Origin: an uncultured Chloroflexia bacterium
Lineage (GTDB): Bacteria; Chloroflexota; Ktedonobacteria; Ktedonobacterales; JADMIN01
Assembly (NCBI GenBank): GCA_963840335.1
Contig: CAWIYP010000012.1
Coordinates: 218,661 to 282,660, forward strand
Length of the DNA stretch: 64,000 nucleotides
Direction of reading: 5' to 3'
The notes beneath the pieces were generated by a model. The model was given only the letters and a program-made list of their open reading frames with translations. It made no database searches and was not told the DNA's origin. Both the position numbers and the translations under genes were made by a program. Shown here piece after piece: positions 4,670 through 32,042 of the stretch. Positions within the stretch are counted from its first letter, which is position 1, and each line of letters begins with the position of its first letter.

Positions 4670-4751
4670 TCCGTCACCCCTGCCATACCCCGCAAACGTG
4701 AACCGACCGCATTATATGCCCGCCACCCATTCCCCGACAATTCTTGACGAC

Positions 4752-5273: not shown

Positions 5274-5541
5274 CTCGCATGCTCCTCCATCACCGCGTGA
5301 GGGCGTTTCCTCAGCGCACTCTCAACATGTGACTGACCTGACAACTGGCGCGCATATGGCGTAGATGCTTGCGCGATGCTATAAAATGGATAGCGAAACG
5401 GCGCAGTTTCGCCTCGGTGACGAGACAAACGGCGCGCTGACATCATCATACACTGGCTTAGGGGACACGCACAGTCTATCTGTGGCGTGACGACCTGGCT
5501 TTTTATTACCACTTTGCGCGCAAAGGCGGAAGAACTCATCC

Positions 5542-6903: not shown

Positions 6904-6989
6904 CTCCGGAGAGCCACATACCCCAGGTTTGCCCACCAGGATGATTGTAGATAACCATACAACATACATACAGAGATGAGAGGCTAATC

Positions 6990-7589: not shown

Positions 7590-7698
7590 GTGGGCGTCAA
7601 CGACCAATACTCCCGCAGATTGACGCCAATCAGCGCCAGCGGTATGCTGCGCCTTGTAGCGACGGCATGCGGTATTGCCATGAAAGGGAACTAGCTCG

Positions 7699-8265
7699 AT
7701 GCGTTGGAGCGCGAAGATCGTTCAGGCCAGGCGTGCGCTCTCGCCGCGCCCACTCGTCATCCTGACGGCTCTGCTGGCGGCGCTGGCGCTGGTTCTGAGC
7801 GCGTGCGGCTCGAATAGCCTGCCCAGCGGCGTCTACACCAGCCAGAAATACGGCTTCAGCGTCGCCTATCCCTCAGGTTGGCAGATCAACACATCCCCAA
7901 ATCCAGCCGCCACAGCGCCGCTCATTGTGCTTATCACGCGCACGGGCGCGACTGAGCTTCCCGGCTCGCAAATATCGTCTCTCACCATCAACGTGCTCGA
8001 TATGAATAATCCTGGCATCGCGCAGAACGCCGCCTCGCTGAGCGCCAACAAGAACCTCACCAAGACCACCGTTGGCGGTCAGCCTGGCTTCCGCGACACG
8101 CCAGTCTCGCAGCCCGGCGGTGGCGCGAACTCCTCCGTCGCGGTGATTCACAGCGACTTCTACGTCGTTCACGGCGCGTATTTCTACACCCTCAGCACTG
8201 ACGCGCTCCCAGGGGACAGCGCCGTACTCAGCCAGATGACGCAGAGCTTCAAGCTACTGGGCTAA
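7699..8265 (+). CDS. Putative lipoprotein, function unknown
   Basis: 188-aa ORF. It has a signal peptide with the lipobox LVLSAC-GS. I recognise no catalytic motif. Confidence 0.6.
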   Translation: MRWSAKIVQARRALSPRPLVILTALLAALALVLSACGSNSLPSGVYTSQKYGFSVAYPSGWQINTSPNPAATAPLIVLITRTGATELPGSQISSLTINVLDMNNPGIAQNAASLSANKNLTKTTVGGQPGFRDTPVSQPGGGANSSVAVIHSDFYVVHGAYFYTLSTDALPGDSAVLSQMTQSFKLLG

Positions 8266-8296
8266 GACAACCGCACGTCTCTTCCCCTCGCCAGGC

Positions 8297-11661: not shown

Positions 11662-13362
11662 TCAGAAGCGGCGCTTCTCACGCTGCTCACCGAAGACAGC
11701 GCGCAGCGTATCGCTAATCTCGCCAAGCGTCGCATAAACCTCCACCGCCGCCAGGATGCGTGGCATGAGATTCTCGGAGCCACGAGCAGCCGACTCCAGC
11801 GCGGCCAGTGTCGCGCCGACGGCGGCGTTGTCGCGCCGCGCCCGCAACTCCGCCACGCGCTGCGCCTGACGTCGCCCAGCCTCTGGGTCAACCTTCAGGA
11901 TGGGCGGTAGCTTTGTCTCTGCCGTCTGGAACTTGTTCACTCCAACAACGATGCGGCGTTGCCCATCCAAATCACGCTGGTAGCGATACGCCGCTTCCTC
12001 GATTTCGCGCTGGATGTAACCCTGCTCCACCGCGCGCACGCTGCCCCCCAGCGCATCAATCTGCTCGATGTATTCCCATGCGCGGCGCTCCAGATCGTTC
12101 GTCAGCGATTCAACGTAGTACGAGCCTGCCAGCGGATCAATGGTATCGGCCACGCCCGTCTCGTAGGCCAGCACCTGCTGTGTGCGCAGGGCCAGCAGCG
12201 CGGATTCCTCTGTCGGCAGCGAGAGCGCCTCGTCCTTGGCGTTCGTGTGTAGCGATTGCGTGCCACCCAGCGCCGCCGCCATCGCCTGGTACGCCGTCCG
12301 CATGATATTGTTGTCGGGCTGTTGCGCTGTTAGCGTCGAGCCTGCCGTCTGGGTATGGAAGCGCAGCATCAGCGAGCGATCTTCCTTCGCGTGGAAGCGC
12401 TCTCGCATGATGCGCGCCCACATGCGCCGCGCCGCCCGGAACTTGGCGACTTCCTCAAAAAAGAGATTGTGCGAATTGAAGAAGAATGAGAGCTGTCCCG
12501 CGAATCCATCTACATCGAGGCCCGCATCAATGGCCGCCTGCACGTAGGCGATGCCGTTGGCCAGCGTGAAGCCGATCTCCTGCGCCGCCGTCGCGCCCGC
12601 CTCGCGGATGTGGTAGCCGCTGATGCTGATCGTATTCCAGCGCGGAATCTCGTCGGCGCAGTAGCGGAAGAGGTCAGTGATGACACGCATCGAAGGCGCG
12701 GGCGGAAAGATATACGTCCCGCGGGCGATATATTCTTTGAGGATGTCGTTCTGCACGGTGCCGGAGAGCTTGCGCGTGTCGGCGCCTTGCTCGTGCGCGA
12801 CCGCGACATAGAGCGCCAGCAAGATGGCAGCGGTCGCGTTGATCGTCATCGAGGTGGTGATGCGCTCCAGAGGGATATCCGCGAAGAGCGTCCGCATGTC
12901 CTCCAGGCTGGAGATCGAGACGCCGACCTTGCCCACCTCGCCCTCGGCCAGAACGTGGTCAGCATCGTAGCCCATCTGTGTAGGCAAGTCGAAGGCGACT
13001 GAGAGGCCAGAGCCACCCTGCTCTAGCAGATAGCGATAGCGGCGATTCGACTCCTCGGCGGTGGCATAGCCCGCGTACTGGCGCATCGTCCACAGACGCC
13101 CACGATACATCGTCGGCTGAATGCCTCGCGTGAAGGGATATTCGCCCGGGAACCCCAACGCCTCCGCTGGCTGCCACTCGGCCAGGTCGGCCTCGGTGTA
13201 GAGGGGCTGCGTCTCGATCTCAGAACTGGTGGTAAAGCGCGGCTCTCGCTCGCCCGCGCGCTCAACGGCGCGGCGATACGGCCCATCACGCCAGCGCTCG
13301 GCCTCTGCCCGGGCCTCGTCACGCGCCGCTGTATGGTCACGCTTGGTGGCGTCATCGCTCAT
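11662..13362 (-). CDS. Methylmalonyl-CoA mutase family, large catalytic (TIM-barrel) subunit
   Basis: 566-aa [31 protein letters not shown] and [12 protein letters not shown] are canonical. No B12-binding small subunit is adjacent in the window. Confidence 0.9.
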
Positions 13363-13786
13363 TGGGGCGTCTCCTCCTCGATCATCATTGATCCGCGAGC
13401 TGCGCAGGCGGCAGGCCAGATGGAGCCTGCGGTCATGGCACAGCGTAACACGCCATGACCGCCAGCGCCAACCAGCGTCACGACGCGCGGCGAGCCATCA
13501 CCAGCAAGCGAGTACGCGGCGAAAGTGTGACCGCAGACACTGACTTTTCGATTGGCCCCTGCTATGCTTTGTATAGCTACGGGTGAGGCGCCTGTGTCAC
13601 GCGCGTAGCTGAGACCGTCCTGAGAGCGGCTAATGCGAGTGCAACCCGAATCCGACATGGCGCGTACACAGTAAGTAAAGCGGTGAGCGCGCGACACTCA
13701 GGCATACGCGCTCATCGTCGCCGGTGGCGCCAGGCCCAGCCTATGGGCCGCTGCCACTGAGCGTACAAGCATGAAGGAGGCGCCGG

Positions 13787-14500
13787 GTGGGACGCGATGC
13801 GGCCGCACTGGACGCTACAAAAATTCTGGCTCGCTCCGTTCCACGGAGTCGAACGGAAGGCGCTAGCGCCATTCACAACGCTGATCTCTCCGAAGACACT
13901 GGACTGGTTCGCCGTGCGCTCCAAGGTGACCAGCAGGCCTTCGCCACGATTGTGGAAAAATATAAAGATCCCGTCTTCAACGTCGCATATCGTATGCTCG
14001 GCAATCCAACCGAGGCCGAAGATGTGGCGCAGGAGACGTTTGTGCGCGCGTACACGCAATTACGCACCTATCAAGAGGGGCGGCGCTTCAGCACATGGCT
14101 GCTCTCCATCGCCTCGCACCTCTCGATAGACCAGCTACGCCGCCGCCGCTTCCTGGCGCTGCCGCTGGAAAACGCTCCCTTCCTCGAATGGATCGCCGAC
14201 CTCGGCGCTGGCCCTGAGCAGGCAGCGCTCCAACTCGAAGCGTCCGACGAGATGCAGAAGGTATTGAGCGTGCTTCCGCCGAAGTACCGCACGGTGCTTA
14301 TCTTGCGCTACTGGTACGATCTCTCCTACGAAGAGATCGCCGAGATGCTCGGGCTGACCTCCGCGCTCGTGAAAGCGCGGCTCCATCGCGCGCGTGAACT
14401 GGTCGCCCGCACCCTCAAAGCGCAAGGTCTCGACATGACACTCGCCAGCGAGGATACCCATGAGTCACATCGCCAGCCGGCTGCGGGAGGCCGCAACTAG
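13787..14500 (+). CDS. ECF-type RNA polymerase sigma factor
   Basis: Region 2 is FATIVEKYKDPVFNVAYRMLGNPTEAEDVAQETFVRAY. Region 4 is LRYWYDLSYEEIAEMLGLTSALVKARLHRAR. The GTG start at 13787 is uncertain. Confidence 0.8.
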   Translation: MGRDAAALDATKILARSVPRSRTEGASAIHNADLSEDTGLVRRALQGDQQAFATIVEKYKDPVFNVAYRMLGNPTEAEDVAQETFVRAYTQLRTYQEGRRFSTWLLSIASHLSIDQLRRRRFLALPLENAPFLEWIADLGAGPEQAALQLEASDEMQKVLSVLPPKYRTVLILRYWYDLSYEEIAEMLGLTSALVKARLHRARELVARTLKAQGLDMTLASEDTHESHRQPAAGGRN

Positions 14501-15077
14501 GCGCCGTGTGATGGACGCCGTTGTGGATACCTCGCGACCGCACATCACCCACCGCTCCACATCGGCCCAACTCGCGCCCCACAGCGCCGACCAATGGGCT
14601 TCCGCTGTGGGCGCAGAGTTGCTCGCCCCGCTTGCCTTCGAGGAGCGTCGTTCCTCGCCACCTGCCCTGCGTGTGGTCGCGCCACCGCGCACCTCCACCG
14701 ACTTCACGGCGCAGGTCATGGCGCGAGTCGCCTCCATGCCACCGGAACCCGACCCACGCGAGCAACGCGCGCGGGTGCGTCGGGCGCACATGCGCCGCTT
14801 CGCGCGCATCTACCTCATGCTGGTCATTGTAAGCGGTGCCGCATTGGTCGCGCTCGCCTTCTATGCCCCATGGGCGCCGGTGAAGGCCCTCGCGAGTGTC
14901 ATCAGCGCGACATTGGTCGTCGTCACACTGGCCTCGTTTGTCAGCAACGCGACCGATGGCCTCGTGAGCGGCTTCGGTGTCGCCTGGGTGGTCATGCTGG
15001 CCGCGCTGGCGCCCGCGCTTTTCCTGGTGACCCGCCGAACCACACGCAAGCGTGGCGCCCGGCCACAGAGACGGTGA
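14460..15077 (+). CDS. Putative membrane anti-sigma factor
   Basis: 205-aa ORF overlapping the sigma gene by 41 nt. It has TDFTAQVMARVASMP followed by two or three predicted TM helices (IYLMLVIVSGAALVALAFY...). The call rests on position and architecture only. Confidence 0.45.
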   Translation: MSHIASRLREAATRRRVMDAVVDTSRPHITHRSTSAQLAPHSADQWASAVGAELLAPLAFEERRSSPPALRVVAPPRTSTDFTAQVMARVASMPPEPDPREQRARVRRAHMRRFARIYLMLVIVSGAALVALAFYAPWAPVKALASVISATLVVVTLASFVSNATDGLVSGFGVAWVVMLAALAPALFLVTRRTTRKRGARPQRR

Positions 15078-16221
15078 TCGCGCCATGAGATCGTTGATGC
15101 CTCCAGATGAGGCGCTCATGCCGCACATTCCGCGACACGAAGGCTGGAGCGCCACACCCCCACCCCCGACATCAGATAGACGCAGGCGCGCCATCTCGGC
15201 GCTGCTGGCGCTCGTCGGCATGCTCATCTGGGCCATAGCCGCCGCGCCGCAAATCGTCTCGCTCGCGCCGCAGGGCGCCAGCCTGCCGCTCATCACGACG
15301 CACTGGATCAGCAACCTCACCGCCTTCACCCATAGCGGGCAGCCAGTTGGCGCGATGAATGGCAACGCGGGAGCCGCACAGGCTTGCTCGACATCGAACG
15401 CCAGCGCCTTTGGCTCTGACTTGCTTGTGCCAGCGAATGAGTGGGTCTGTGGCGATGCGCTGGCTGTCGGTGGCTCGATGACGGTGCGTGGGCGTGTGCA
15501 AGGCGACGCGCAGGCTATTGGGGGCGGCGTCATCGTCTCTGGTGAGGTTGGCGGCGATGTCACAGCGATTGGCGGCGACATCACCGTGCAGCCGGGCGGA
15601 CACGTCCACGGCAAGCTCCAGACCATCGGCGGACACATCATCATCCAGCCGGGAGCCTTTGCCGAGCAGGTCGCCCCAGTGAGCGCCAATCCCCTGTCTG
15701 ACTCCCATTCAACCACTACACCGTTCCATCTGCTCGCGCCTGAGACAAGCTCATTCTGGCTGGGGCTGCTCTTCTGGATCTGCGCCACACTCGGCCTGAC
15801 CGCGTTCGTGCCAGAAGCGGTGGGGCATGTGCGCTATACCATCGCGCATCGCTTCCTGCTGAGCGGCTTCTCTGGCGCGCTCATCGGCGCCATCGGCCTC
15901 CTGCTCGCGGCGGCGCTCTTCCTCACCTGCCTGGGCATCCCCGTGACCGTGGCGATTGGCCTGGCGTTGTGGCTGGCCTGGGTCACTGGCACGGTCGCGT
16001 TTGGTAGCTGGCTTGGCGCCTCGCTGCTGCGTGGGCTGGGAAACCGTGAGCCATCGCTGCTGCTCTCGTCGCTGCTGGGCGTCCTCCTCCTCTCGATGCT
16101 CAAAGCGCTGCCCGTGGCGGGGATTGTCGTCTCGGTCACCGTGGGCTGTGTCGCGCTTGGCGCCGCCACCATTACACTACTCTCGGCGCGGCGTGTCTCC
16201 TACGCTCACCTGCGCTGGTAG
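15052..16221 (+). CDS. Membrane protein with bactofilin-like (polymer-forming, beta-helical) repeats
   Basis: The repeats GDALAVGGSMTVRGRVQGDAQAIGGGVIVSGEVGGDVTAIGGDITVQPGGHVHGKLQTIGGHIII are flanked by an N-terminal TM helix and about four C-terminal TM helices. The start is uncertain (15052 or ATG 15085). Confidence 0.6.
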   Translation: MAPGHRDGDRAMRSLMPPDEALMPHIPRHEGWSATPPPPTSDRRRRAISALLALVGMLIWAIAAAPQIVSLAPQGASLPLITTHWISNLTAFTHSGQPVGAMNGNAGAAQACSTSNASAFGSDLLVPANEWVCGDALAVGGSMTVRGRVQGDAQAIGGGVIVSGEVGGDVTAIGGDITVQPGGHVHGKLQTIGGHIIIQPGAFAEQVAPVSANPLSDSHSTTTPFHLLAPETSSFWLGLLFWICATLGLTAFVPEAVGHVRYTIAHRFLLSGFSGALIGAIGLLLAAALFLTCLGIPVTVAIGLALWLAWVTGTVAFGSWLGASLLRGLGNREPSLLLSSLLGVLLLSMLKALPVAGIVVSVTVGCVALGAATITLLSARRVSYAHLRW

Positions 16222-16345
16222 CGCCGCACGCCTGCAGGTCACCCGCCCGCGAGTCACCGACTGTGCCATACTGCGAGGGAGCGCGTAACCGGCGCGCCCG
16301 GCGCCAGCGAACGCCTACCAGCCAGTATGAAGCGGAGTAGAGAGC

Positions 16346-17674
16346 ATGACAGCGCCATCGCGGCGTGCGTTCGCGGCGGAACGCATCTGGTACGAGGGGC
16401 GATTCCAGCCCGGCCTGGCAATCATCGTCGCGAACGGACGCATCGAGCGAATAGTCCCGCTCGCCGAATTACCCGCCGATCTCGCGATGGAGCGCTTCCC
16501 ACGTCGGCTGCTGCTGCCCGGCTCCATCAACGCCCACAACCACTCGTTCCAGTCACTGCTGCGCGGAGTCGCCGATGACTGCGACTTCTTCACCTGGCGC
16601 GACCGCGCGCTCTATGGCTACACGCCGCGCATGACCGAGGAGGTCATCTACCATGGCGCGCGCTTCGCCTTCGCCGAGATGCTGCGGGCTGGCGTCACGA
16701 CTGTCTGCGACTTCTTTTACATTCACAGCGGCGGCAACGCCAACGATCAGGCTGTCATTCGCGCCGCGCGTGACGTCGGCATCCGCATCACCCTCGCCCG
16801 CACCATGTACGACTGGACCGGCGCGCCACCGCAGTATCAGGAGACGATAGACGAGGCGGTGGGACGCACACGCGAGCTATGGCAGGAGTACCGTGGCGCC
16901 GATGATGTCAGCGTCTGCCCGGCGCCGCACTCGCCCCACGCCGCCAGCCCGGAGATGATCGTCGCAGGTTCGCGGCTGGCGGAGGAGTTGGGAACGCGCT
17001 TCCACATCCACGTCGCGGAGGGCCAGTACGAGCGCGACCAGATCATGAAACAGTCTGGCCTGACGCCGATTCGCTGGCTGGAGTCGCTGGGCGTTGCGCT
17101 CGACCTCGCGACCATCATTCACGGCTGCTGGCTGGAGGACGACGACATCCGCCTGATGGGCGAGCGCGACGTGCGGCTGGTCTACAATCCCGCCAGTAAC
17201 ATGTTCCTCGGCGACGGCGTGACCCGCATCCCAGAGATGCTGGCGGCGGGCGTCAAGGTCGGGCTGGGCAGCGATGGCGGCTGCTCGAACAATCGCGTCT
17301 CAGTCTTCGATGAGATGCGCATGTGCGCGCTGTTGCAGAAGCTGACAGCTCTCGACTCGAACGTGCTGCCAGCGGAGACGGCGCTGGCGATGGGCACGGC
17401 TGGCTCAGCCGATACGCTGGCCATCCCCGCTGGACGCATCGCGCCCAACCACTTCGCGGACTTCACACTGATCGATATGGATGATCCCTCCCTCCAGCCA
17501 CCGTGGCGTTACGAGAAAAATATCGTCTATGCGATGACGCCGCAAGCCATTCGCGAGGTGATCGTCGGTGGGCGCTCCGTCCTACGCGACGACACGCTGC
17601 TGCTCACCCCTTGGACCGAAGTGCTCGGCGGGATGCTGGAGGCGACGCGCGACTGGCCACGCGACCTGGGATGA
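16346..17674 (+). CDS. Amidohydrolase-superfamily deaminase/chlorohydrolase-like protein
   Basis: 442-aa ORF. It has the metal-binding motif LLPGSINAHNHSFQSLLRG, plus HIHVAEG and GLGSDG. Confidence 0.8.
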   Translation: MTAPSRRAFAAERIWYEGRFQPGLAIIVANGRIERIVPLAELPADLAMERFPRRLLLPGSINAHNHSFQSLLRGVADDCDFFTWRDRALYGYTPRMTEEVIYHGARFAFAEMLRAGVTTVCDFFYIHSGGNANDQAVIRAARDVGIRITLARTMYDWTGAPPQYQETIDEAVGRTRELWQEYRGADDVSVCPAPHSPHAASPEMIVAGSRLAEELGTRFHIHVAEGQYERDQIMKQSGLTPIRWLESLGVALDLATIIHGCWLEDDDIRLMGERDVRLVYNPASNMFLGDGVTRIPEMLAAGVKVGLGSDGGCSNNRVSVFDEMRMCALLQKLTALDSNVLPAETALAMGTAGSADTLAIPAGRIAPNHFADFTLIDMDDPSLQPPWRYEKNIVYAMTPQAIREVIVGGRSVLRDDTLLLTPWTEVLGGMLEATRDWPRDLG

Positions 17675-17777
17675 GTGCGGCAGCCCCTACCACGCACGCC
17701 AGCATGCTAGAATACGGCTGTTGAGCCGTTCGGCGTGACGCAGCGGGCGGCGACCATGACGAAGGAGTCATACGACG

Positions 17778-19778
17778 ATGAGCGATACGACACAGCCACC
17801 CGCCGCTACCTCGCCGACCCCCGACAATTGGGAATCGCTGAACGAACCAATCGCCTGGCGCCCCAGCGACGACTACCTCCAGCGCAGCCGACTCCTGCGC
17901 TTCATGCGCCGTCACAACATCGGCGATTACGACGCGCTGCTGCGGCAGGCCAGCGACGATCCCGCGTGGTTCTGGGACGCCGTCTCGGAAGACCTCGGCC
18001 TCGTCTGGCAGCGCCCCTATACGCAGGTGATGGACACCACGAGCGGGCCGCAGTGGACGCGCTGGTATCTGAATGGTCAGTTCAACTACGTCGCCACCGC
18101 GCTCGACCAGCACGCCGAGGGCGCCAGCGCCAGCCGCACAGCGCTCATCTGGGAGGGCGAAGACGGCGAAGTGCGCAGCTTTACCTACGCGGAACTGCTG
18201 GCGCTGACCAACCGTACGGCGAACGCGCTGCGTGCGCTCGGCGTGGGCAAGGGTGATCGCGTCGGCGTCTACATGCCGATGATCCCAGAAGTGGTGGCCG
18301 CGACGCTGGCCTGCGGCAAGCTTGGCGCCATCTACACACCGATCTTCTCGGGCTATGGCGCGGAGGCGGTCGCCGCGCGCCTGCGCGATAGTGGCGCCAA
18401 GCTGCTCATCACCGCCGACGGGTTCTATCGCCGAGGGAAGGTCGTCCCGATGAAGGAGACCGCCGACGCCGCCCTGAGCGCCGCGCCAACCGTGGAGCGT
18501 GCGCTGGTCGTGCGGCGCATCGGTGGCGCGACGCCGTGGGAACCCGCGCGCGATATCGCCTGGGATGAGGCGCTGGCGGCGCAGTCCGACGCCTGTGAGA
18601 CAGCCATCACCGAGGCCGAAGACCCGTACATGCTCATCTACACCTCTGGCACCACGGGACGCCCCAAAGGCGCTGTGCATGTCCACTGTGGCTTCCCCGT
18701 CAAGGGCGCGCAGGACATGGCGCACTGCTTCGACGTGCAGCCTGACGACACGCTCTTCTGGCTCACCGACATGGGCTGGATGATGGGGCCGTGGGCGGTC
18801 AGCGGCGCCCTGATGCTCGGCGCCACCCTGGCGATCTACGAGGGCGCGATAGACTACCCCGACACTGACCGCCTGTGGGACTTCGTTGAGCGACACAAGG
18901 TGACGGTCATGGGCATTTCGCCAACAGTAATCCGCTCGCTGATGACGCTGGGCGACGAACCAGTGCGCAAGCACAATCTCAGCGCGCTGCGCGTCCTCGG
19001 CTCGACGGGCGAGCCGTGGAACTCTGGCCCCTGGCACTGGCTCTTCGAGGTTGTCGGCGGTGGCAAGCTCCCGATCATCAACTACTCCGGTGGCACCGAA
19101 GTCTCCGGTGGCATCGTCGGCTGCACCACCATCACGCCGATCAAACCCTGCTCCTTCTCTGGGCCAGTGCCCGGCATGGCCGCCGATGTCGTGGATGAGC
19201 GTGGCGCCTCAGTGCGCGGACAGGTAGGAGAGCTGGTCATCCGCACGCCCTGGCCTGGCATGACCCGCGGCTTCTGGCAGGATCCCGAGCGCTACGAAGA
19301 AGCCTACTGGACGCGATTCCCAGGGATCTGGACTCACGGCGACTGGGCGGCCATTGATAGCGACGGCTTCTGGTACATCCTGGGCCGCTCGGATGACACC
19401 ATCAAAGTGGCGGGCAAGCGGCTCGGCCCGGCTGAGGTGGAATCCGCCGCTGTGGCGCACCCGCTGGTGAGCGAGGCAGCCGCCATCGGCGCGCCGCATC
19501 CAATCAAGGGCGAGGTCGTAGTCGTCTTCGCGGTGCTGCGCCCTGGTGTCGAGCCGACGGAACAGCTACGCGAGGAGGTGCGCGCGAGTGTAACGAATGC
19601 CCTTGGCCCAGCCCTCAAGCCTGACGCCGTCTACTTTGTCACGCAACTCCCCAAGACGCGCAACGGCAAGGTGCTGCGGCGGCTGATCCGCGCACGGCAT
19701 CTCGGGCAGACCGACCTGGGTGATCTTTCGTCGCTCGAAAGCCCGGAGGCCCTGGAGGCCATCGCCCAAACCCGCTGA
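17778..19778 (+). CDS. AMP-forming acyl-CoA synthetase (acetyl/acetoacetyl-CoA synthetase-like)
   Basis: 666-aa ORF. It has the AMP-binding motif YTSGTTGRPKG, ILGRSDDTIKVAGKRLG and the C-terminal KTRNGKVLRR. Confidence 0.85.
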   Translation: MSDTTQPPAATSPTPDNWESLNEPIAWRPSDDYLQRSRLLRFMRRHNIGDYDALLRQASDDPAWFWDAVSEDLGLVWQRPYTQVMDTTSGPQWTRWYLNGQFNYVATALDQHAEGASASRTALIWEGEDGEVRSFTYAELLALTNRTANALRALGVGKGDRVGVYMPMIPEVVAATLACGKLGAIYTPIFSGYGAEAVAARLRDSGAKLLITADGFYRRGKVVPMKETADAALSAAPTVERALVVRRIGGATPWEPARDIAWDEALAAQSDACETAITEAEDPYMLIYTSGTTGRPKGAVHVHCGFPVKGAQDMAHCFDVQPDDTLFWLTDMGWMMGPWAVSGALMLGATLAIYEGAIDYPDTDRLWDFVERHKVTVMGISPTVIRSLMTLGDEPVRKHNLSALRVLGSTGEPWNSGPWHWLFEVVGGGKLPIINYSGGTEVSGGIVGCTTITPIKPCSFSGPVPGMAADVVDERGASVRGQVGELVIRTPWPGMTRGFWQDPERYEEAYWTRFPGIWTHGDWAAIDSDGFWYILGRSDDTIKVAGKRLGPAEVESAAVAHPLVSEAAAIGAPHPIKGEVVVVFAVLRPGVEPTEQLREEVRASVTNALGPALKPDAVYFVTQLPKTRNGKVLRRLIRARHLGQTDLGDLSSLESPEALEAIAQTR

Positions 19779-23652: not shown

Positions 23653-23858
23653 GTGGCTAGGTCGCGGCGAGCGCCCCCGAGGCGCCTGTGAGGCGCGCTG
23701 GGCGGCCTTGCCATCCTTTCAATCTGCTGATTAACGCCAGCCGCGCCATGGCGGTGGCGATGGTATCACGGTTCGGTGATTGCGCATGGCTCTCGGCCAC
23801 CATTATAGCCCGTGGAAGCGCCTGTGCGGGCGACTTTCCCATGGCGTGGATGCCGCGA

Positions 23859-24968
23859 CTATTCGATGATGCCACCGCCGAGCGTTTCATCGCCCTCCGC
23901 GCCACCATAAAAGACCGCCGCCTGCCCTGGCGTCACCGCCTGCGCCGCCACATCGAGGCGCACCTCCGCCCGCCCCTCAGCGAGCGGCGTGATCGTCGCG
24001 CCGACCAGCGCCGCCTTGTAGCGCAGCTTCACCCGCGCCGTGAAGGGCTGCTCCGGCGCGTGGCCAGAGGTCCACGTTGTCTGGTGATGGTGAACGTCTC
24101 GCGCGCCAGCTGCTCGGCGGGGCCGACCACGAGCGCATTCTGCGCGCGCATCGAGGCGCAAGACACGCAGCGGCTCGCGCGCGGTGACACCCAGGCCCTT
24201 GCGCTGCCCCACGGTGTAGTACGCCAGCCCCTGATGCTCGCCAACCTGCTGGCCTGTCGTATCGAGAATTGGCCCAGGCTGCGGCGCTGCACGCCCGGTC
24301 GCCTCGGCGTACCGACGCATGAAGCCGCGATAGTCATTGCCCGCGACGAAGCAGATTTCCTGGCTCTCGGCCTTCGTTGCGACCGGCAGCCCGCGCTCCG
24401 CCGCCAGCGCCCGCACCTGCGGCTTTGTCAGCTCGCCCAGCGGAAAGAGCGCATGCTGGAGCTGCCGCTGCGTCAGCACATGCAGCATATAGGACTGATC
24501 CTTCGCGGTGTCCACGCCCTGCCGCAGCCGCCGCAGCCCCGTGGCGGGATCATCATCCACACGCACATAGTGGCCCGTCGCCAGATACTCCGCTCCCAGC
24601 GCCAGCGCCCGCTCCAGCAGCAGCGTGAAGCGGATGTGGCGGTTGCAGCGCAGGCAGGGATTCGGCGTGCGGCCAGCCGCGTACTCCTCGTAGAAGAAGT
24701 CGACAATCGTCTCCTGGAAGGGCTGCTCGACGTTGACGACGTAGAAGGGGATGTCGAGCGCCGCCGCGACTCGTCGCGCATCATTGACCGACTCCAGCGA
24801 GCAGCACTTGTTCTCGGCGACCAGCTCCTCGCCATCATCGCCGATCACCGTTGGCTCGGACCACAGCCGCAGCATGATGCCGACGACATCGTAGCCCTGC
24901 TCCTTGAGCAGCGCCGCCGCCACCGAGCTATCTACGCCGCCGCTCATCCCAACGACCACGCGCGTCAT
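23859..24968 (-). CDS. mnmA: tRNA-specific 2-thiouridylase
   Basis: The PP-loop MTRVVVGMSGGVDSSVAA starts at ATG 24968. The 129-codon upstream extension in track ORF 23859-25355 has no homology signal and is probably a high-GC artefact. Confidence 0.9.
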   Translation of the reverse strand: MTRVVVGMSGGVDSSVAAALLKEQGYDVVGIMLRLWSEPTVIGDDGEELVAENKCCSLESVNDARRVAAALDIPFYVVNVEQPFQETIVDFFYEEYAAGRTPNPCLRCNRHIRFTLLLERALALGAEYLATGHYVRVDDDPATGLRRLRQGVDTAKDQSYMLHVLTQRQLQHALFPLGELTKPQVRALAAERGLPVATKAESQEICFVAGNDYRGFMRRYAEATGRAAPQPGPILDTTGQQVGEHQGLAYYTVGQRKGLGVTAREPLRVLRLDARAECARGRPRRAAGARDVHHHQTTWTSGHAPEQPFTARVKLRYKAALVGATITPLAEGRAEVRLDVAAQAVTPGQAAVFYGGAEGDETLGGGIIE

Positions 24969-25202
24969 CGCCTGCGCCTCTCGCTCTCCCGCTTGCCCGA
25001 ATTCACCCGCTCGCGCCACGACGCAATCGCCCGCGCGAACCTCATCAGCATAGTATACGCCGCCGTCGGCGCCTGCCTCAAGCGCGCAAGCCTGCGCCGC
25101 GCTTGTCGGTCGCGCTACGATAGAGCTAGAGCTGTCGTTTGCTGGAATGCGCAACGCGCGGGGATGCGCGCCCAGAAGGGGATGCGCGAGGAGGGATACG
25201 GT

Positions 25203-27290
25203 ATGACGAAGCGAGATGCGGGCGTCATTCTCACCCGGCTGGATGGCGCTGAGCCGCGCTACTGGCCCATCGAGAAGTATGGCGTCATCGGCGATTGCCG
25301 CACCGCTGCGCTGGTCGCGCCGGATGGCGGGATTGACTGGCTCTGCCTGCCGCATTTCGATAGTTCGGCGGCCCTCTGCAAGCTGCTCGACGCCGATAAG
25401 GGTGGAGTGTTCCGCGTGCGTCCAGGGGAAGCCTGTGAGTCCGCCATGCGCTACATTCCCGCCTCGAACGTGCTCCAGACAACCTTCACCACCCCGACAG
25501 GCGTCGTCAGCATGCTCGACTTCATGCCCATCCGCGCGCGGCGCCCCTCAGAACAGGCGCTGGCGAAGCTACTCGCGCTGGCCCCCGTCGCCAGCCACAG
25601 CCAACGCGCGACGATCGAGCGCGAGCTTGGCAATGATGTCGCCGCCGCCCACCGCATTAACCGTATCATCTCCTGCGAGCATGGCGAGACCACGCTCGAC
25701 CTCATGCTCAAACTCACACCCAATTACGCCCGCAGCGTCGCGCAGATCACTCTCCACAGCGAGCATCCCCACGCGATAAGCGCGATCATTCAATCGGATG
25801 ACCAGTTCTTCGTCTTCGTCGCGAAACCGATGACTGGGTATGAGAACACTATCGAAGCGCCAACCTCGAGCGCACACGATGGGCTGCTCCACGCAAGCTG
25901 GCGGCTGCGGGCTGGCCAGCGTGTCAGCGTCGCGCTCAACTACGCGCGCAATCAGCGCGAGGCGGAGGCGCTGCTCAAGCGGCTCTGGCTGCTTGACCTC
26001 GACGACGACGCAGCGGAGACGCTGGACTACTGGCAGACATGGGCTGACATCTGCGACTACCAGGGGCCATACGCCGACGCGGTGCTACGCTCGGCGCTCG
26101 CGCTCAAGCTCTGCGTCTTCGAGCCGACCGGCGCCATCGTCGCCGCGCCAACCACCTCGCTCCCCGAAGACATCGGCGGCGAGCGCAACTGGGACTATCG
26201 ATTTACCTGGCTGCGTGACTCATCATTCACGCTCCAGGCGCTGGGGAATCTGGGCTATCATGGCGAGGCGCGCGACTACTTCCACTTCCTCCACGACCTC
26301 CACCTGCTGCATGGCGACCAGTTCCGCGTCCTCTACACGCTGCATGGCGACTCAGCGGACGCCACCGCTGAGCGCGATCTATCGCATCTGGAAGGCTACC
26401 GTGGTTCACGCCCCGCGCGCATCGGCAATGGAGCCGCAAACCAGCGACAAATGGACATTTACGGCGAGCTTGCCGACGCCGCGTTCCTCTATGCCGAGGC
26501 GATGGGCTACTGCACAGGCCCACGCGCGCGCGAGACTCCGCGCGACCTGCGTGAGTTGGCCGCCGTCCTCGCCGACTTCGTGGCCGACCACTGGCAGGAC
26601 ATTGATCGTGGCATCTGGGAGGTGCGCGGCCCGGAGCGCGCGTTCGTCTATTCGCGTGTGATGTGCTGGGTAGCGCTCGACCGCGCGCTCTGCCTGACGG
26701 AACGCCACGCCAGCAACGAGCGGCGCTCCCACTGGAGCGACGCCAGCGAGCGCATCCGGGCGGATTTGCTTACGCATGGCTACAGCGATGAGCTGCATAC
26801 CTTCACGCAGGCATACGGCGTGGATGCCGTGGACGCCGCGAACTTCCGTATCGCGCTCGTCGGTTATCTGCCGCTGACCGATGATCGGTTGCGCTCCACC
26901 ATCACGACCACTGGTCATCTGCTCCAGAGCGATAAGGCGCTGATCTATCGCTACCGTCCGGCAGCGCTGGAGCCGCCGCACGACCAGAGCGCGGCGACTG
27001 ATGACGGCCTGGAGGGCGCGGAGGGCGCATTTCTCGTCTGCGCTTTCTGGTATGTCAGCGATCTCGCGCTGATAGGGGAGGTCGAGGAGGCGCGCAGACG
27101 CTTCGAGCGATTGCTCGCCTATGCCAGCCCGCTTGGCCTCTACTCAGAGGAGGTTGACCCCAGTAGCGGCGCGCTGCTGGGCAACTTCCCGCAGGCCTTC
27201 ACGCACATCGGCCTCATCAACGCCGCCAACCATCTACGCCGCGCCGAGGAGCGCGCTCAGCGCCAGGCGGAAAGCGCGCCGCCCGCCTGA
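25203..27290 (+). CDS. Glycoside hydrolase family 15 protein (glucoamylase/trehalase-like)
   Basis: ATG 25203 follows GAGGAGGG. Motifs: YGVIGDCRTAALVAPDGGIDWLCLPHFDS, NWDYRFTWLRDSSFT, WEVRG. It is the 3' part of the 1200-aa track ORF. Confidence 0.85.
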   Translation: MTKRDAGVILTRLDGAEPRYWPIEKYGVIGDCRTAALVAPDGGIDWLCLPHFDSSAALCKLLDADKGGVFRVRPGEACESAMRYIPASNVLQTTFTTPTGVVSMLDFMPIRARRPSEQALAKLLALAPVASHSQRATIERELGNDVAAAHRINRIISCEHGETTLDLMLKLTPNYARSVAQITLHSEHPHAISAIIQSDDQFFVFVAKPMTGYENTIEAPTSSAHDGLLHASWRLRAGQRVSVALNYARNQREAEALLKRLWLLDLDDDAAETLDYWQTWADICDYQGPYADAVLRSALALKLCVFEPTGAIVAAPTTSLPEDIGGERNWDYRFTWLRDSSFTLQALGNLGYHGEARDYFHFLHDLHLLHGDQFRVLYTLHGDSADATAERDLSHLEGYRGSRPARIGNGAANQRQMDIYGELADAAFLYAEAMGYCTGPRARETPRDLRELAAVLADFVADHWQDIDRGIWEVRGPERAFVYSRVMCWVALDRALCLTERHASNERRSHWSDASERIRADLLTHGYSDELHTFTQAYGVDAVDAANFRIALVGYLPLTDDRLRSTITTTGHLLQSDKALIYRYRPAALEPPHDQSAATDDGLEGAEGAFLVCAFWYVSDLALIGEVEEARRRFERLLAYASPLGLYSEEVDPSSGALLGNFPQAFTHIGLINAANHLRRAEERAQRQAESAPPA

Positions 27291-27396: not shown

Positions 27397-29100
27397 ATGG
27401 GCGAGAGGGGTATGAGCGAACCAACGGGCGAGACGAAGGCGATCCGGCGCCAGGCGCCAAAGCGCACCGCCGACGACATCTCAGCGATCATGCGTCGTGT
27501 GCATGGCCGCGACACCACTCCTGAGATGCGTCTGCGGCGGGCGCTCTGGGCGCGTGGGCTGCGCTACAGCGTCGCCGCCGCTGCGCTCCCCGGCAAGCCC
27601 GATATCGTCTTCCCCACCGCGCGTCTGGCCGTATTCGTGGATGGCGACTACTGGCATGGCAACCAGTGGCGCCGGCGGGGCAAGCTCGCACTGGAGGAGC
27701 AGTTCGCTGCGTCAGCGGAGGCATCGCGGGCCTACTGGCTGCGCAAGATTCGCCGTAACATGCGCCGCGACTGCGAAGCGACCGCCGCGCTGCTCCGCGG
27801 CGGCTGGACGATACTGCGCCTGTGGGAGAGTCAGATTACAGCGGATATGGAGGGATGCGTGAGCCTCATCGCCGACACGCTCGCCGACCAGCGCGGGGAG
27901 AATGGCCCAGCGCCCACCGACCTACGTGCGCGCCTGCCCCAGAAGACCTGCGCCGAATTCTTCGCCGGCATCGGGCTGATGCGCCTGGGACTGGAGCGGC
28001 AGGGCTGGCGCATCACCTTCGCCAACGACATCGACGAACGCAAGCGCGCCATGTATCTCGCCCACTTCGCGCCAGAGGGCGACACATCCGACTTTGCGCT
28101 GGGCGATGTGCATACACTGCCCGTGGAGCGCGTGCCGAGCGTGACACTGGCCACCGCGAGCTTCCCCTGCAACGACCTCTCGCTGGCTGGCGGACGGCAG
28201 GGGCTGGCAGGCGCGCATTCCTCGGCATTCTGGGGCTTCATCCGCACTCTCGATGAGCTTGGCCCACGCCGCCCGCCGCTGGTGTTGCTGGAGAATGTGC
28301 CAGGCTTCCTCACCTCACATGGCGGAGCAGACTTCGCCCGCGCGCTGCGTGCGCTCGACGCTCTGGGCTATGTGGTGGATGCTTTCCAGCTCGACGCCGC
28401 CCGCTTCACACCACAGAGCCGCCGCCGTCTCTTCGTCATTGGCGCGCAGGCCGCTCTCTTCGCAGATACACCCAGCGAGGCGCCGACGCTCACCGCCAGC
28501 GAGCTACGGCCCCAGGCGCTGCTCGACGCCATCCCCGCGACCACCGACGTGCGCTGGCGCGTGCGTCCGCTGCCAGAGCCACCGCAACGTGAGACGCGCC
28601 TCGACGACATCCTCGATGATCTGCCAGAGTCAGCGCCGGAGTGGTGGTCCTCTGACCGCGCCAGCTACCTGCTGGGCCAGATGAGTCCGCGCCACCGCGC
28701 CCTGGCCGACGCCATGATCGCGGGGGAGCGCTGGAGCTATGGCGCCGTCTTCCGCCGCATGCGCCAGGGCCGCTCGATGGCCGAGCTGCGAGTGGATGGC
28801 ATGGCTGGCTGCCTGCGCACCCCACGCGGCGGCAGCGGGCGGCAGATCATCTTCCGGGGCGGCGGCGGACGCTACCAGGCGCGGCTGCTGACCCCACGCG
28901 AGGCGGCGCGGCTGATGGGCGCGGGCGAGTTCCGCATCTCCGGCTCGCTCAATGACGCACTCTTCGGCTTCGGCGATGCGGTCTGCGCCGACGCCATCGC
29001 CTGGATCGCCACCTACTACCTCGATCCGCTCATCAACGAGCTGATGCGGGGCGCGCCACTGCGCGCCGCGAGCGCGTCTGTCGCGAGAGATGAGCGCTGA
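27397..29100 (+). CDS. Fusion protein: Vsr-type very-short-patch-repair endonuclease domain plus DNA (cytosine-5) methyltransferase
   Basis: N-terminal Vsr motifs: DTTPEMRLRRAL, LPGKPDIVFP, VFVDGDYWHG, RRNMRRD, GWTILRLWE. C-terminal C5-MTase motifs: I FFAGIGL, IV SFPCNDLSLAG, VI ENVPGF, VIII QSRRRLFVIG, X GFGDAVC. It is one uninterrupted 567-aa ORF. Confidence 0.85.
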   Translation: MGERGMSEPTGETKAIRRQAPKRTADDISAIMRRVHGRDTTPEMRLRRALWARGLRYSVAAAALPGKPDIVFPTARLAVFVDGDYWHGNQWRRRGKLALEEQFAASAEASRAYWLRKIRRNMRRDCEATAALLRGGWTILRLWESQITADMEGCVSLIADTLADQRGENGPAPTDLRARLPQKTCAEFFAGIGLMRLGLERQGWRITFANDIDERKRAMYLAHFAPEGDTSDFALGDVHTLPVERVPSVTLATASFPCNDLSLAGGRQGLAGAHSSAFWGFIRTLDELGPRRPPLVLLENVPGFLTSHGGADFARALRALDALGYVVDAFQLDAARFTPQSRRRLFVIGAQAALFADTPSEAPTLTASELRPQALLDAIPATTDVRWRVRPLPEPPQRETRLDDILDDLPESAPEWWSSDRASYLLGQMSPRHRALADAMIAGERWSYGAVFRRMRQGRSMAELRVDGMAGCLRTPRGGSGRQIIFRGGGGRYQARLLTPREAARLMGAGEFRISGSLNDALFGFGDAVCADAIAWIATYYLDPLINELMRGAPLRAASASVARDER

Positions 29101-29359
29101 TGATGTTTTATGTGTTGAATGGGAAATGTGTGCGGCAAGCTGGCGGTTAAAACCGCGCCTGGAAGGCCTGCGGGCCACAAAGTGCGCCTTCGCGCACTGG
29201 GTTCCACGCAAGAATCCGTGCGCATGGCCCGCGATATATCCGCCACGCGCGCTTCACTCCGCCCATAGCCTAGCCCGCGTCGGCGGGCTTCGCGGCCCGC
29301 AGCCCTCCAGGCGCGAGTTCACTTGCCAGCAGCCACAAGTAAACGAAACCGAGGATAGC

Positions 29360-30799
29360 GTGACGAGTGACCCGATAAACGACGACTGGCGGGACATCGC
29401 CACCACAGCGGATGATCCGAACGGGCTGCGTGGTAAGCGTGTGCTGGTGATGGGGCTGGGGCTGCTCGGTGGCGGCGTCGCGGCGGCGCGCTATGCCGTC
29501 GCGCAGGGCGCCGCCGAGGTGACGGTGACCGACCTGCGCTCGGAGGCAATGCTGGCGGAGAGCGTCGCGCGCCTGGCTGGCCTGCCCATCCGCTATGTGC
29601 TGGGGAGCCACGACACGGACGACTTCCAGCAAGCCGATGTCGTTGTGCGCAATCCGAACGTCAAGCGCAATTCGCCCTACCTCGCCATCGCGCGCGAGGC
29701 GGGCAAGCGCATCGAGATGGAAATCGCCTGGTTCTTCCGCGCATGCCCCGGCAAGATCGCTGGCGTCACCGGCACGCGGGGCAAGAGCACGACGACCCTG
29801 CTCCTCCACCATATCCTCGATGTCGCGGGCTGGCACCCGCTGCTAGGCGGCAACCTCGGCGGCATCGAAACGGTCTCGCTGCTGCCGGAGATCACCCCTG
29901 ACCGCTGGACCGTGCTGGAGCTGGGCAACTGGATGCTCGAAGGGCTGCATACCGTGCGCCGCAGCCCACAGCTCAGCATCTTCACCAATCTGCTCCCCGA
30001 CCACCTCGACTCCTACGACTCGATGGAGGACTACGGCCAGGCCAAGACCAGCATCTTCCGCTATCAGCGCGCGGGCGACCTGGCGCTCTTCAACACCGAC
30101 AACGACTACACCCAGCGCTACGCCAACGAGGCGAGCGGCGCCGATGTCTGGCTCTTCAGCGCGGAGCGCGGCGTCAGCTACCCGCGCGACCGCCCGGCGG
30201 AGACACGACCCTTCCGCTACGCCGACGCCATCCGCCTCCGTGGCGCGCATAACCTGGCCAACGTGCAGGCGGCGACCCTCGCGGCGGAGCTTCTGGGCAT
30301 TCCAGAGGACATCATCCGCGCGGGGGTGGAGTCGTTCGGCGGGGTTCCGCACCGGCTGGAGGTTGTCCGCACACTGGACGGCGTGACCTGGGTGAACGAC
30401 AGCGCGAGCACCGCGCCCATCGCGGGAATAGCGGCGCTGCATAGCTTCACCGAACCGATTGTCCTCATCGCGGGCGGCAACACCAAGCAGATAGACCACC
30501 ACGACTACGCCGAAGAGGCCGCCACCCGCGCCAAACACATTATCCTGCTGAAGGGCAGCGCCACCGAAGCCTTCGCGGCGGATGTGCGCGCGGCGGCGGC
30601 GCGTCACAGCCTCCCCGATCCCATCGAGGGCATCTACGACAATTTCGCGGCGGCCATCCAACGGGCGCGCGAGCTAGCCGCGCCGGGTGATGTTGTGTTG
30701 CTCTCGCCTGGCTTCACCAGCTTCGGCATGTTCCTGCACGAATTCGACCGGGGCGACCAGTTCCGCGCGCTGGTGCGCGCGTTGCCTGAGCAGCCGTAG
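29360..30799 (+). CDS. murD: UDP-N-acetylmuramoylalanine--D-glutamate ligase
   Basis: RVLVMGLGLLGGG and GVTGTRGKSTT (P-loop) are present with Mur ligase C-terminal motifs. I infer a GTG start at 29360. The upstream 90 codons of the track ORF look non-coding. Confidence 0.88.
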   Translation: MTSDPINDDWRDIATTADDPNGLRGKRVLVMGLGLLGGGVAAARYAVAQGAAEVTVTDLRSEAMLAESVARLAGLPIRYVLGSHDTDDFQQADVVVRNPNVKRNSPYLAIAREAGKRIEMEIAWFFRACPGKIAGVTGTRGKSTTTLLLHHILDVAGWHPLLGGNLGGIETVSLLPEITPDRWTVLELGNWMLEGLHTVRRSPQLSIFTNLLPDHLDSYDSMEDYGQAKTSIFRYQRAGDLALFNTDNDYTQRYANEASGADVWLFSAERGVSYPRDRPAETRPFRYADAIRLRGAHNLANVQAATLAAELLGIPEDIIRAGVESFGGVPHRLEVVRTLDGVTWVNDSASTAPIAGIAALHSFTEPIVLIAGGNTKQIDHHDYAEEAATRAKHIILLKGSATEAFAADVRAAAARHSLPDPIEGIYDNFAAAIQRARELAAPGDVVLLSPGFTSFGMFLHEFDRGDQFRALVRALPEQP

Positions 30800-30815
30800 C
30801 CGCGACAGTCGCTCG

Positions 30816-32042
30816 CTACTCGGCCCAGGGCAGCGCGTCGTTGAGCAGCAGCGCCTGCGCGACCTCGCCGGAGCGGATGACGCCCTCGCCTTCTGGCACG
30901 ATCAGCAGCGCCGTCGCCCCCTGGAGCGAGGAGATCAGGTGCGATTCCTGCTCACCCGTCGCCCGCGCGATCAGCGTGCCACCGCGCGAGGCCAGCCGCA
31001 CCCGCACGAAGTGGCGCCGGTCAGCGCGCCGCTGCTCCTCGCCCTCCAGCACCACATCAATCAGGGGCCGCTCCACCTGCGCCGCGCCGAGCATCCTCCG
31101 GATGGCCGGGCGCCCAAACAGCTCGAACGTCACCGCCGCCGAGACTGGATTCCCCGGCAACCCCAGCAGCGGCGTCTCGCCCAGCGCGCCAAATGCCAGC
31201 GGCTTCCCAGGACGCATCCGCACGCGCCAGAACTCCATCGCGCCCTGCTCACTCAGCATCTGCTTCACCAGGTCATAGTCGCCGACCGAGACGCCGCCAG
31301 AGGTCAGAATCAGATCGTATCCCTGCCGCGTCTGCGCCAGCATCGCGCGTAGCTCATCCTCGCGGTCGGGCGCGATGCCCAGCGCCACCGGCTCAGCGCC
31401 AGCACGGGTCACGGCGGCGATGAGATACGGCGTATTGCTGTTGTAGATTTGCCCCGGCTGGAGCGGTTGCCCCACTGGAACCAGCTCATCGCCCGTCGCC
31501 AGAATGGCCACACGCGGGCGGCGTGTCACGCGCACAGGCGAGACCCCCAGGGCCGCGAGCAGCGCGATCTCCGCCGGGCCAATCTCTGTCCCCGCTCGCG
31601 CCAGCAGCATGCCGGGGCGCGCATCCTCGCCCGCGTGGCGCACATTCGTCCCCGCCGCGACCGCCGCGCTGATCGTCACCCAGCCATCCGCGACCTCGGT
31701 TAGCTCCTGCTGGAGCGCCGCATCCGCGCCATCGGGCAGCGGGGCGCCCGTGAGGATGCGCACCGCCTCGCCAGCCGCCACGACGCCGGGATAGACGCTG
31801 CCCGCCGGAACCTCGCCCACCAGCCGCAGCCGCACGGGCGCCGCCGTCGTCGCGCCGCGAGTATCCGCCGAGCGCAGCGCATAGCCATCCATCGCGGAGT
31901 TGGCGAAGGGCGGCGATGATGTCTGCGCCAGGGCGTCCTCCGCCAGTACACGCCCCAGCGCCTCCGTCAGCGGAATGGACTCCGCCAGGAGGGGCTGGAA
32001 TCGCGCCAGCACACGCTCGCGCGCCTCTTCGACTGCCAGCAT
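30816..32042 (-). CDS. moeA: Molybdopterin molybdenumtransferase
   Basis: 408-aa ORF. SPPFANSAMDGYALR, ILTSGGVSVGDYD and LPGNPVSA are MoeA hallmarks. Confidence 0.9.
   Translation of the reverse strand: MLAVEEARERVLARFQPLLAESIPLTEALGRVLAEDALAQTSSPPFANSAMDGYALRSADTRGATTAAPVRLRLVGEVPAGSVYPGVVAAGEAVRILTGAPLPDGADAALQQELTEVADGWVTISAAVAAGTNVRHAGEDARPGMLLARAGTEIGPAEIALLAALGVSPVRVTRRPRVAILATGDELVPVGQPLQPGQIYNSNTPYLIAAVTRAGAEPVALGIAPDREDELRAMLAQTRQGYDLILTSGGVSVGDYDLVKQMLSEQGAMEFWRVRMRPGKPLAFGALGETPLLGLPGNPVSAAVTFELFGRPAIRRMLGAAQVERPLIDVVLEGEEQRRADRRHFVRVRLASRGGTLIARATGEQESHLISSLQGATALLIVPEGEGVIRSGEVAQALLLNDALPWAE

Follow-up and report, generated by a model that had tools for sequence, protein, structure and literature searches.

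In Escherichia coli, the C5-cytosine methyltransferase Dcm is accompanied by the endonuclease Vsr, for which the mechanism of very-short-patch (VSP) repair has been established; the two are encoded by overlapping genes with vsr downstream, and no restriction enzyme adjoins them. Here we analyse a gene in a 64-kb stretch of DNA from an uncultured Chloroflexia bacterium, hereafter the window, that likewise pairs a C5-methylase with Vsr and has no adjacent restriction enzyme, but encodes both in one polypeptide with Vsr at the N-terminus. Of the residues of the E. coli endonuclease, those for catalysis (Asp and His), for intercalation (aromatic) and for reading the mismatch (Lys and Asn) are kept, whereas no zinc site is present. 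The methylase has only a distant relationship to Dcm (PRK10458, with a score of 43.8 bits where the cut-off is 710), and a CCWGG target is not assumable.

The methylase also resembles that of Type II restriction-modification (R-M) systems with a DUF4928 protein (PADLOC models PDLC03543 and PDLC03243), which occur with or without Vsr. The methylase module matches PDLC03243 (MTase_II, a REBASE-derived Type II model) end to end (E=4.8e-114), but in contrast to these systems the window holds no DUF4928 gene, and the fused gene occupies a conserved housekeeping locus rather than a plasmid or genomic island. In Caulobacter crescentus, the solitary C5-methyltransferase ScmA is functionally tied to the Vsr-like protein VsrA without restriction (PMC12907096). 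The two genes are unlinked there and fused here, and we liken the systems by description, not by sequence; by this analogy, ScmA/VsrA offers a possible model for why methylase–Vsr pairs persist. The methylase module also matched the Druantia type II model DruM (PDLC00028, E=9.1e-89 over the full model, PADLOC). Membership in Druantia, which calls for DruM together with the DruE helicase and partner genes, was rejected, as no partner genes are present among the ten neighbours scanned with Pfam and these include LepA, MnmA, GH15, MurD and MoeA; to our knowledge, Druantia does not comprise a Vsr module.

We conclude that the gene probably encodes a bifunctional methylate-and-repair enzyme that derives from a Type II R-M system with a DUF4928 restriction endonuclease and is now an orphan. 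The first-pass annotation of the window had proposed an orphan methylase physically coupled to deamination repair, and the core of that proposal is supported by the profile matches of both modules, the flanking genes, the lack of DUF4928 in the window and the match of the Vsr fold to structure 1cw0. The analysis demonstrates the identity of the domains, the conservation of residues, the distribution of the family, the link to a restriction gene in relatives, the synteny and the purifying selection, whereas both catalytic activities, the target site and the biological role of the orphan methylation are predictions.

The fused gene and its relatives

The gene is an uninterrupted open reading frame (ORF) with two modules and a variable linker:

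27397..29100, + strand: fused Vsr–C5-methyltransferase gene, 567 aa, ATG start, stop codon included (ORF listing and direct reading of the DNA)
27472..27891, + strand: Vsr (T:G mismatch endonuclease) module of the zinc-less subtype, aa 26-165 (Pfam, NCBIfam, AlphaFold2 model)
27892..27945, + strand: inter-module linker, aa 166-183, of variable length and sequence across the family alignment
27946..29046, + strand: C5-cytosine DNA methyltransferase module, aa 184-550 (PF00145, TIGR00675, PADLOC, Foldseek)

That one 567-aa ORF carries the motifs of both activities, as first annotated, was confirmed, with each quoted motif found at its position. The profile searches proposed at that stage placed both modules above curated cut-offs. 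The Vsr module matches Pfam Vsr PF03852 over aa 28-93 (E=4.2e-24, 84.6 bits against a cut-off of 27) and NCBIfam TIGR00632 (vsr) over aa 26-145 (102.9 bits against 97.85), and a sequence search of the PDB returned E. coli Vsr (1cw0, 4e-13) over aa 30-148. Weak Pfam matches of this module were MTES_1575 and DUF559. The methylase module matches Pfam DNA_methylase PF00145 over aa 185-538 (E=7.6e-37) and NCBIfam TIGR00675 (dcm; 124.1 bits against 100.65), and its PDB match by sequence is M.HhaI (1.8e-15, aa 186-349). The full-length AlphaFold2 model reached a predicted local distance difference test score (pLDDT) of 80 and a predicted template modelling score (pTM) of 0.83, with lower confidence around residues 81-100; its best Foldseek match is M.HhaI (template modelling (TM) score 0.72 on the target).

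Residues 1 to ~20 have very low confidence in the AlphaFold2 model, and the first ~25 are poorly conserved. An alternative in-frame ATG lies at 27412 (M6), with the purine-rich sequence GAGAGGGG just 5' of the ATG, and it could be this codon rather than the ATG at 27397 that is the true start of the gene. A promoter and terminator consensus scan gave no match, which is uninformative in a Chloroflexota-like genome of 64% GC.

The fused architecture is widespread. Both PF03852 and PF00145 were detected in all of the 120 best matches in a collection of 5.8 billion proteins (59-90% identity, 515-599 aa). Scanning one genome per species yielded at least 599 pattern matches, and at least 570 of these encode a relative of the fused protein; in the 80 best of these loci the alignment runs from about residue 20-30 to about 555 and thus covers both modules. 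These genomes belong to some dozen phyla: Chloroflexota (including Ktedonobacterales), Acidobacteriota, Bacillota, Nitrospirota, Planctomycetota, Desulfobacterota-type lineages, Armatimonadota, Poribacteria, Hydrogenedentota, Verrucomicrobiota and Omnitrophota. Fused proteins of this kind are publicly annotated as 'DNA mismatch endonuclease Vsr' or 'DNA (cytosine-5-)-methyltransferase'. Fusions in the reverse order, with a zinc-less Vsr C-terminal to the methylase, were also found (P0233, P0236), as were other N-terminal fusions of Vsr to a C5-methylase (P0216, P0155, P0161). Evidently, this kind of fusion arose more than once.

These relatives also bear on whether the single ORF could be an assembly or sequencing artefact, with a stop codon or frameshift lost between two adjacent genes. 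Separate genes are indeed known: dcm and vsr overlap in E. coli, and on the Rhizobium plasmid pRL11 a vsr gene and a related methylase gene lie in the same frame with stops between them. However, the same continuous ORF, with a linker that varies but stays in frame in all relatives aligned, recurs in independent assemblies from hundreds of species, so that a lost stop codon in the window assembly is excluded for practical purposes and the chance of an artefact is negligible. The fusion is therefore real, as first annotated, but it is common across bacteria, an outcome that the first-pass annotation itself had named as taking away its novelty. We found no description or characterisation of a Vsr–methylase fusion in the literature searched, which is weak evidence because most subscription journals and REBASE were outside its scope. 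The window gene thus belongs to a large, automatically annotated family that is known but apparently uncharacterised, and its novelty is low.

The pRL11 locus (L091, Rhizobium ruizarguesonis, 3971-9623) had initially appeared as a match spanning both modules and was rejected as a fusion, as it consists of two genes with stops between them and its Vsr is of the canonical zinc type. This zinc-type vsr looks truncated (116 aa, ending after the GW..V.VW block), and the cluster further contains a C5-methylase with the motif PCQDLS, an overlapping gene for a 288-aa hypothetical protein, a gene for an ATP-binding protein of 611 aa and another vsr. Possibly, this is a different R-M-like system with two Vsr genes.

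The Vsr and methyltransferase modules

To relate the Vsr module to the prototype, it was aligned to E. coli Vsr and the residues at functional positions were then counted over 83 family sequences. Residue numbers and roles in the E. coli enzyme are those which we take to apply in structure 1cw0. The main landmarks are:

27601..27603, + strand: Asp69 in GKPDIV, equivalent to catalytic Asp51 of E. coli Vsr (83/83)
27634-27669, + strand: FVDGDYWHGNQW, with the DGDYWHGNQW portion at 27640-27669
27736..27771, + strand: WLRKIRRNMRRD block, with W114, K117, N121 and D125 kept, the counterparts of E. coli residues that intercalate or read the mismatch
27823..27831, + strand: WES, with Ser145 at the fourth zinc-ligand position (Cys117)

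Overall, the functional positions are 98-100% conserved across the 83 sequences, which span many phyla. H87 (E. coli H69), the intercalating residues W86 (W68) and W114 (W86), the mismatch-reading K117 (K89) and the N-terminal clamp residue M32 (M14) are present in every sequence, as is an aspartate, D82, at the metal-ligand position occupied by H64 in E. coli. The mismatch-reading N121 (N93) is found in 81 and D125 (D97) in 82 of the sequences. At the position of the intercalating F67, the family has F, Y or L, and the window protein has Y85.

None of the four zinc ligands found in E. coli Vsr is retained. C66 corresponds to D84 (D in 79/83), H71 to N89 (G, N or H in the family), C73 to W91 (W in 75/83) and C117 to S145 (S in 73/83), and the WH motif is followed by an insertion of about 11 residues. 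The family conservation profile contains no alternative conserved Cys/His cluster. The first-pass annotation had noted the replacement as a deviation of this protein; the replacement itself stands, but it is family-wide and common in stand-alone Vsr proteins. An exhaustive search of 1.84 billion cluster representatives with the module alone gave 9294 matches with E<=1e-3, of which 3171 had E<=1e-10. Among the 150 best, nearly all share the signature 'DG(D/E)xWHG ... WE(S/T)', including many stand-alone proteins of 130-230 aa, and only about half a dozen of them show the canonical 'DGCFWH..C ... WEH' form. The zinc-less form therefore constitutes a large subfamily of Vsr proteins rather than something special to the fusion. 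The zinc site is a trait of the E. coli prototype that does not define the Vsr family as the profiles delimit it. Zinc-less Vsr modules were also seen with other partners, namely a DUF4420 PD-(D/E)XK domain (P0186) and a Peptidase_S74 intramolecular-chaperone domain, of a type characteristic of tail spikes of phages (P0176). No biochemical study of a zinc-less Vsr was found within the same scope of literature, and the only Vsr structures that turned up in the PDB searches are those of the zinc-containing E. coli enzyme (1cw0, 1vsr, 1odg).

Modelled by itself with AlphaFold2, the module gave a confident fold (pLDDT 84.7). Its best Foldseek match is the E. coli Vsr-DNA complex 1cw0 (E=3.4e-5, TM 0.60), followed by 1vsr and, third, the Vsr-like homing endonuclease I-Bth0305I (3r3p).

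Loss of the zinc ligands, the insertion after the WH motif and the lower model confidence around residues 81-100 would also fit a module that is a catalytically dead remnant, which the methylase retains only as an appendage for DNA binding or structure. We consider this very improbable. A dead module would not be expected to keep its catalytic and DNA-contacting residues nearly invariant across so many phyla, nor would the zinc-less signature persist in stand-alone proteins of ~150 aa, which have no other reason for retention. Moreover, the ratio of nonsynonymous to synonymous substitution rates (dN/dS) of the module, 0.17-0.41, is similar to that of the methylase, and the module on its own is modelled with confidence. 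An active Vsr module is hence the interpretation that we retain.

The methylase module carries motifs I, IV, VI, VIII and X in canonical order:

27958..27978, + strand: motif I FFAGIGL, S-adenosylmethionine binding, invariant in the family
28162..28182, + strand: motif IV FPCNDLS with catalytic Cys258 (C258 in 83/83; N259 in 77/83, T in 6/83)
28291..28299, + strand: motif VI ENV, invariant in the family
28414..28434, + strand: motif VIII QSRRRLF, with QxRxR invariant in the family
28435..28860, + strand: variable region between motifs VIII and IX, with the conserved blocks WW, QMSPRHR, SMAELR and GCLRTPRGGS
28972..28983, + strand: motif X GDAV, with Asp527 where most C5-methyltransferases have Asn (D in 82/83)

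Together with the profile scores above cut-off, this confirms the complete set of C5-methyltransferase motifs. From its position relative to the target-recognition domain (TRD) of M.HhaI, the variable region 28435..28860 is the presumed TRD. The deviation in motif IV that had been pointed out is present as PCNDLS, but it is not special to the window protein, since PC[N/T]DLS occurs in all 83 family sequences. Being constant in the alignment, the PCN and GD variants are family traits, not decay. DNMT3 enzymes, too, have PCNDLS as their motif IV. An affinity to these was rejected, as no DNMT3 chain appeared among the PDB sequence matches to E<=10 or the top 50 structural matches.

DUF4928 and the Ktedonobacterales locus

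In the relatives L004 and L005/L006, a 319-aa DUF4928 protein is encoded 2-15 nt after the fused gene (L005 11630-12589, L004 11575-12534; 41 further loci carry the gene). Directly downstream DUF4928 genes were detected by tblastn in 43 of the 90 fetched loci, corresponding to 41 of 82 non-redundant loci, and in every such relative DUF4928 starts within ~250 nt of the fused-gene match, usually within tens of nt. The protein matches the PADLOC model REase_II PDLC03543 of Type II restriction enzymes (E=6.9e-50); Pfam, NCBIfam and the 5.8-billion-protein search label it only as 'DUF4928 family protein' or 'hypothetical', and the PDB contains no relative detectable by sequence. The strict adjacency and the PADLOC match allow the Type II restriction endonuclease that belongs to this methylase family to be identified as DUF4928.

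Unfused methylase relatives (~39-41% identity) have DUF4928 as their immediate neighbour on small plasmids, conjugative or mobilizable, of Pseudomonas, Aeromonas, Burkholderia, Achromobacter and Enterobacter, and SGI1-related genomic islands of Marinobacter encode Vsr, DUF4928 and a C5-methyltransferase as separate genes (PMC9035990). Adjacency in the relatives, on the plasmids and in the Marinobacter islands implies that methylase and DUF4928 are an old mobile Type II R-M pair; Vsr became fused to the methylase in a large branch of it.

The first-pass annotation had stated that no restriction partner is visible. This is correct for the window, where tblastn gave no DUF4928 match, but not for the family, which is not primarily orphan. 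As DUF4928 adjoins the fused gene in half of the loci examined, the window copy is a secondary orphan. In a quick neighbour-joining tree of the 83 fusion proteins, built without support values, loci with and without the restriction gene interleave, implying that it was lost repeatedly. The window copy falls in a clade of ten Ktedonobacterales/Chloroflexota loci, all of which lack DUF4928.

The neighbours of the fused gene serve as synteny markers and are not components of the system:

25173..27290 (start approximate), + strand: GH15 glycoside hydrolase, upstream neighbour
29291..30799, + strand: MurD-like ligase, downstream neighbour

The MurD-like gene sits where the relatives carry the DUF4928 restriction gene. 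A Pfam scan of ten neighbours (~11 kb upstream, ~9 kb downstream) identified only housekeeping or metabolic genes and genes without a Pfam match; those upstream include LepA, MnmA and GH15, those downstream MurD, MoeA and an aminotransferase, which bears out the housekeeping flanks (GH15, murD) noted at first annotation. No second Vsr or C5-methyltransferase was found in the 64-kb window by tblastn. Within the clade, L001/L012, L011, L013 and L014 have MurD immediately downstream and L015 has it nearby, and MnmA lies upstream in L001, L013 and L014; the order MnmA-GH15-fusion-MurD is kept in at least five species known from metagenome-assembled genomes. The fusion proteins of the clade are 71-79% identical (tblastn best segment) and the MurD proteins ~83-85%.

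The GH15 frame is open over 23688-27290 (+), about 1.5 kb 5' of the likely start near 25173, and in this extended form overlaps mnmA (23859-25355, -); the extension looks like an artefact of long ORFs in GC-rich DNA rather than part of a true protein of 1200 aa. In the relative L001, at 79% identity, an insertion of ~5 kb (13296-18271) separates murD from moeA, genes that are adjacent in the window (compare 30800-32042). This insert contains a class-I methyltransferase, hypothetical proteins, a MoeA_C fragment, a DDE_3 transposase fragment and an Mrr_cat-ParA-like fusion protein.

Nei-Gojobori comparisons of the window copy with six clade members gave dN/dS values for the Vsr module of 0.17-0.41, for the methylase module of 0.15-0.27 and for the 18-codon linker, which is poorly conserved and drifts, of 0.29-2.2 (undefined in one comparison). 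The low values of the modules in a clade without the restriction gene imply that both modules are kept by purifying selection in the absence of a restriction enzyme.

Markov-corrected observed-to-expected ratios of 4- and 6-bp palindromes were calculated for the window and for 41 loci with and 41 loci without DUF4928, and the two groups of loci were contrasted for 4-, 5- and 6-bp palindromes in ~150 tests. No motif was selectively depleted in the DUF4928-positive loci (best z -2.3 over ~150 tests); many 6-bp palindromes are depleted generically, which blurs the contrast. Observed versus expected counts in the window include ACGCGT 0/16, CAGCTG 1/18, CTCGAG 3/44, GGGCCC 1/13, AAGCTT 1/13 and GAGCTC 2/20, which suggests broad restriction avoidance or a general palindrome bias of the genome. 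CGATCG had been considered as the target on the lead of XorII, a 5-methylcytosine system with a vsr homolog. This lead was dropped, as CGATCG is depleted alike in loci with (0.58) and without (0.60) the restriction gene and the literature offered only passing citations. The window has 11 CGATCG sites where 37 are expected, and 99 of its C-to-T derivative TGATCG/CGATCA where 67 are expected; since the ratio is ~0.6 in related loci with and without DUF4928, the depletion is not linked to the fused system.

Strong depletion of many 6-bp palindromes suggests exposure to restriction enzymes, and the window is only 64 kb of the genome; the methylase might thus not be orphan and its partner might be encoded elsewhere. 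We regard this as improbable. In every DUF4928-positive relative examined, the gene starts within ~250 nt downstream, whereas all ten clade loci lack it there, six of them with murD downstream, and the window contains no trace of the gene. A secondary orphan at a fixed chromosomal position remains the reading that we prefer.

Proposed mechanism and the persistence of orphan methylation

According to the proposed mechanism, the C-terminal module would methylate C5 of cytosine within a specific short DNA sequence. Deamination of 5-methylcytosine to thymine would produce a T:G mismatch, which the N-terminal module would nick 5' of the T, and polymerase and ligase would complete the very-short-patch resynthesis that restores the C. 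For the fused protein, this repair route is inferred by analogy with E. coli Vsr. The fusion would enforce co-expression, a 1:1 stoichiometry and joint inheritance or loss of the mutagenic and the repairing activity. The system would have originated as a mobile Type II R-M system with the DUF4928 endonuclease gene directly downstream; in the Ktedonobacterales lineage this gene would have gone, leaving the fused gene as a stable chromosomal orphan between GH15 and murD.

Several points weigh against this interpretation. The complete absence of the E. coli zinc ligands could entail a stability or activity different from that of E. coli Vsr. The PCN of motif IV, in place of PCQ, and the GD of motif X, in place of GN, depart from the commonest forms, and in the palindrome statistics no candidate site was over-represented as a footprint of VSP repair. 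The quick tree without support values and the 64-kb extent of the visible region, beyond which a cognate restriction gene could lie, add to these points.

Going further, the Vsr module might act in cis with the TRD of the methylase, as one machine that finds the site and then either methylates the C or nicks the T:G mismatch, and that persisted in Ktedonobacterales, well beyond the loss of the restriction endonuclease, because of an epigenetic role outside defence. The high pTM of the full-length predicted structure hints at a fixed inter-domain arrangement, but in this extended form we consider the proposal unlikely.

An alternative use of the two modules would be a single-chain restriction or 'addiction' device, in which the Vsr-like module is a nuclease arm that nicks or cuts unmethylated or mismatched target sites while the methylase protects the host. 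The Vsr-like protein of Caulobacter triggers the SOS response when ScmA is deleted (PMC12907096), and Vsr-fold domains also occur as homing and restriction nucleases, in line with I-Bth0305I as third structural match and the weak similarity to MTES_1575 and DUF559. However, a separate restriction enzyme is already encoded immediately downstream in half of the family, the residues for reading T:G and for intercalation are invariant, and the best structural match is Vsr itself. In addition, loss of the gene would remove nuclease and methylase together and so give no protection against deletion. We therefore judge such a device quite improbable. The repair type of the nuclease and the separate restriction enzymes of relatives likewise, if indirectly, disfavour a Type IIG-like single-chain R-M enzyme.

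This leaves the methylate-and-repair enzyme and the question of its retention. In Caulobacter, the Vsr-like protein harms cells that lack the solitary cytosine methylase, and the authors propose that the genes of solitary methylases are stabilised by Vsr genes (PMC12907096). In the fused form, such selection would act only against point mutations that kill the methylase and not against deletion, so that retention of the gene suggests that methylation itself is useful. One may speculate that this use lies in regulation or in protection against incoming cognate restriction endonucleases.

The coupling of methylation to Vsr repair is textbook biology, the fused architecture is abundant and automatically annotated, and the locus itself is ordinary. 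The zinc-less Vsr subfamily is large and came without a biochemical study in our searches. With DUF4928 assigned as the restriction endonuclease, its specificity, and hence that of the methylase, should be easy to determine. Altogether, the locus provides a clear natural example of an R-M system with Vsr that has decayed to a selected orphan Vsr–methylase gene at a fixed chromosomal position, and as such bears on the persistence of solitary cytosine methylases.

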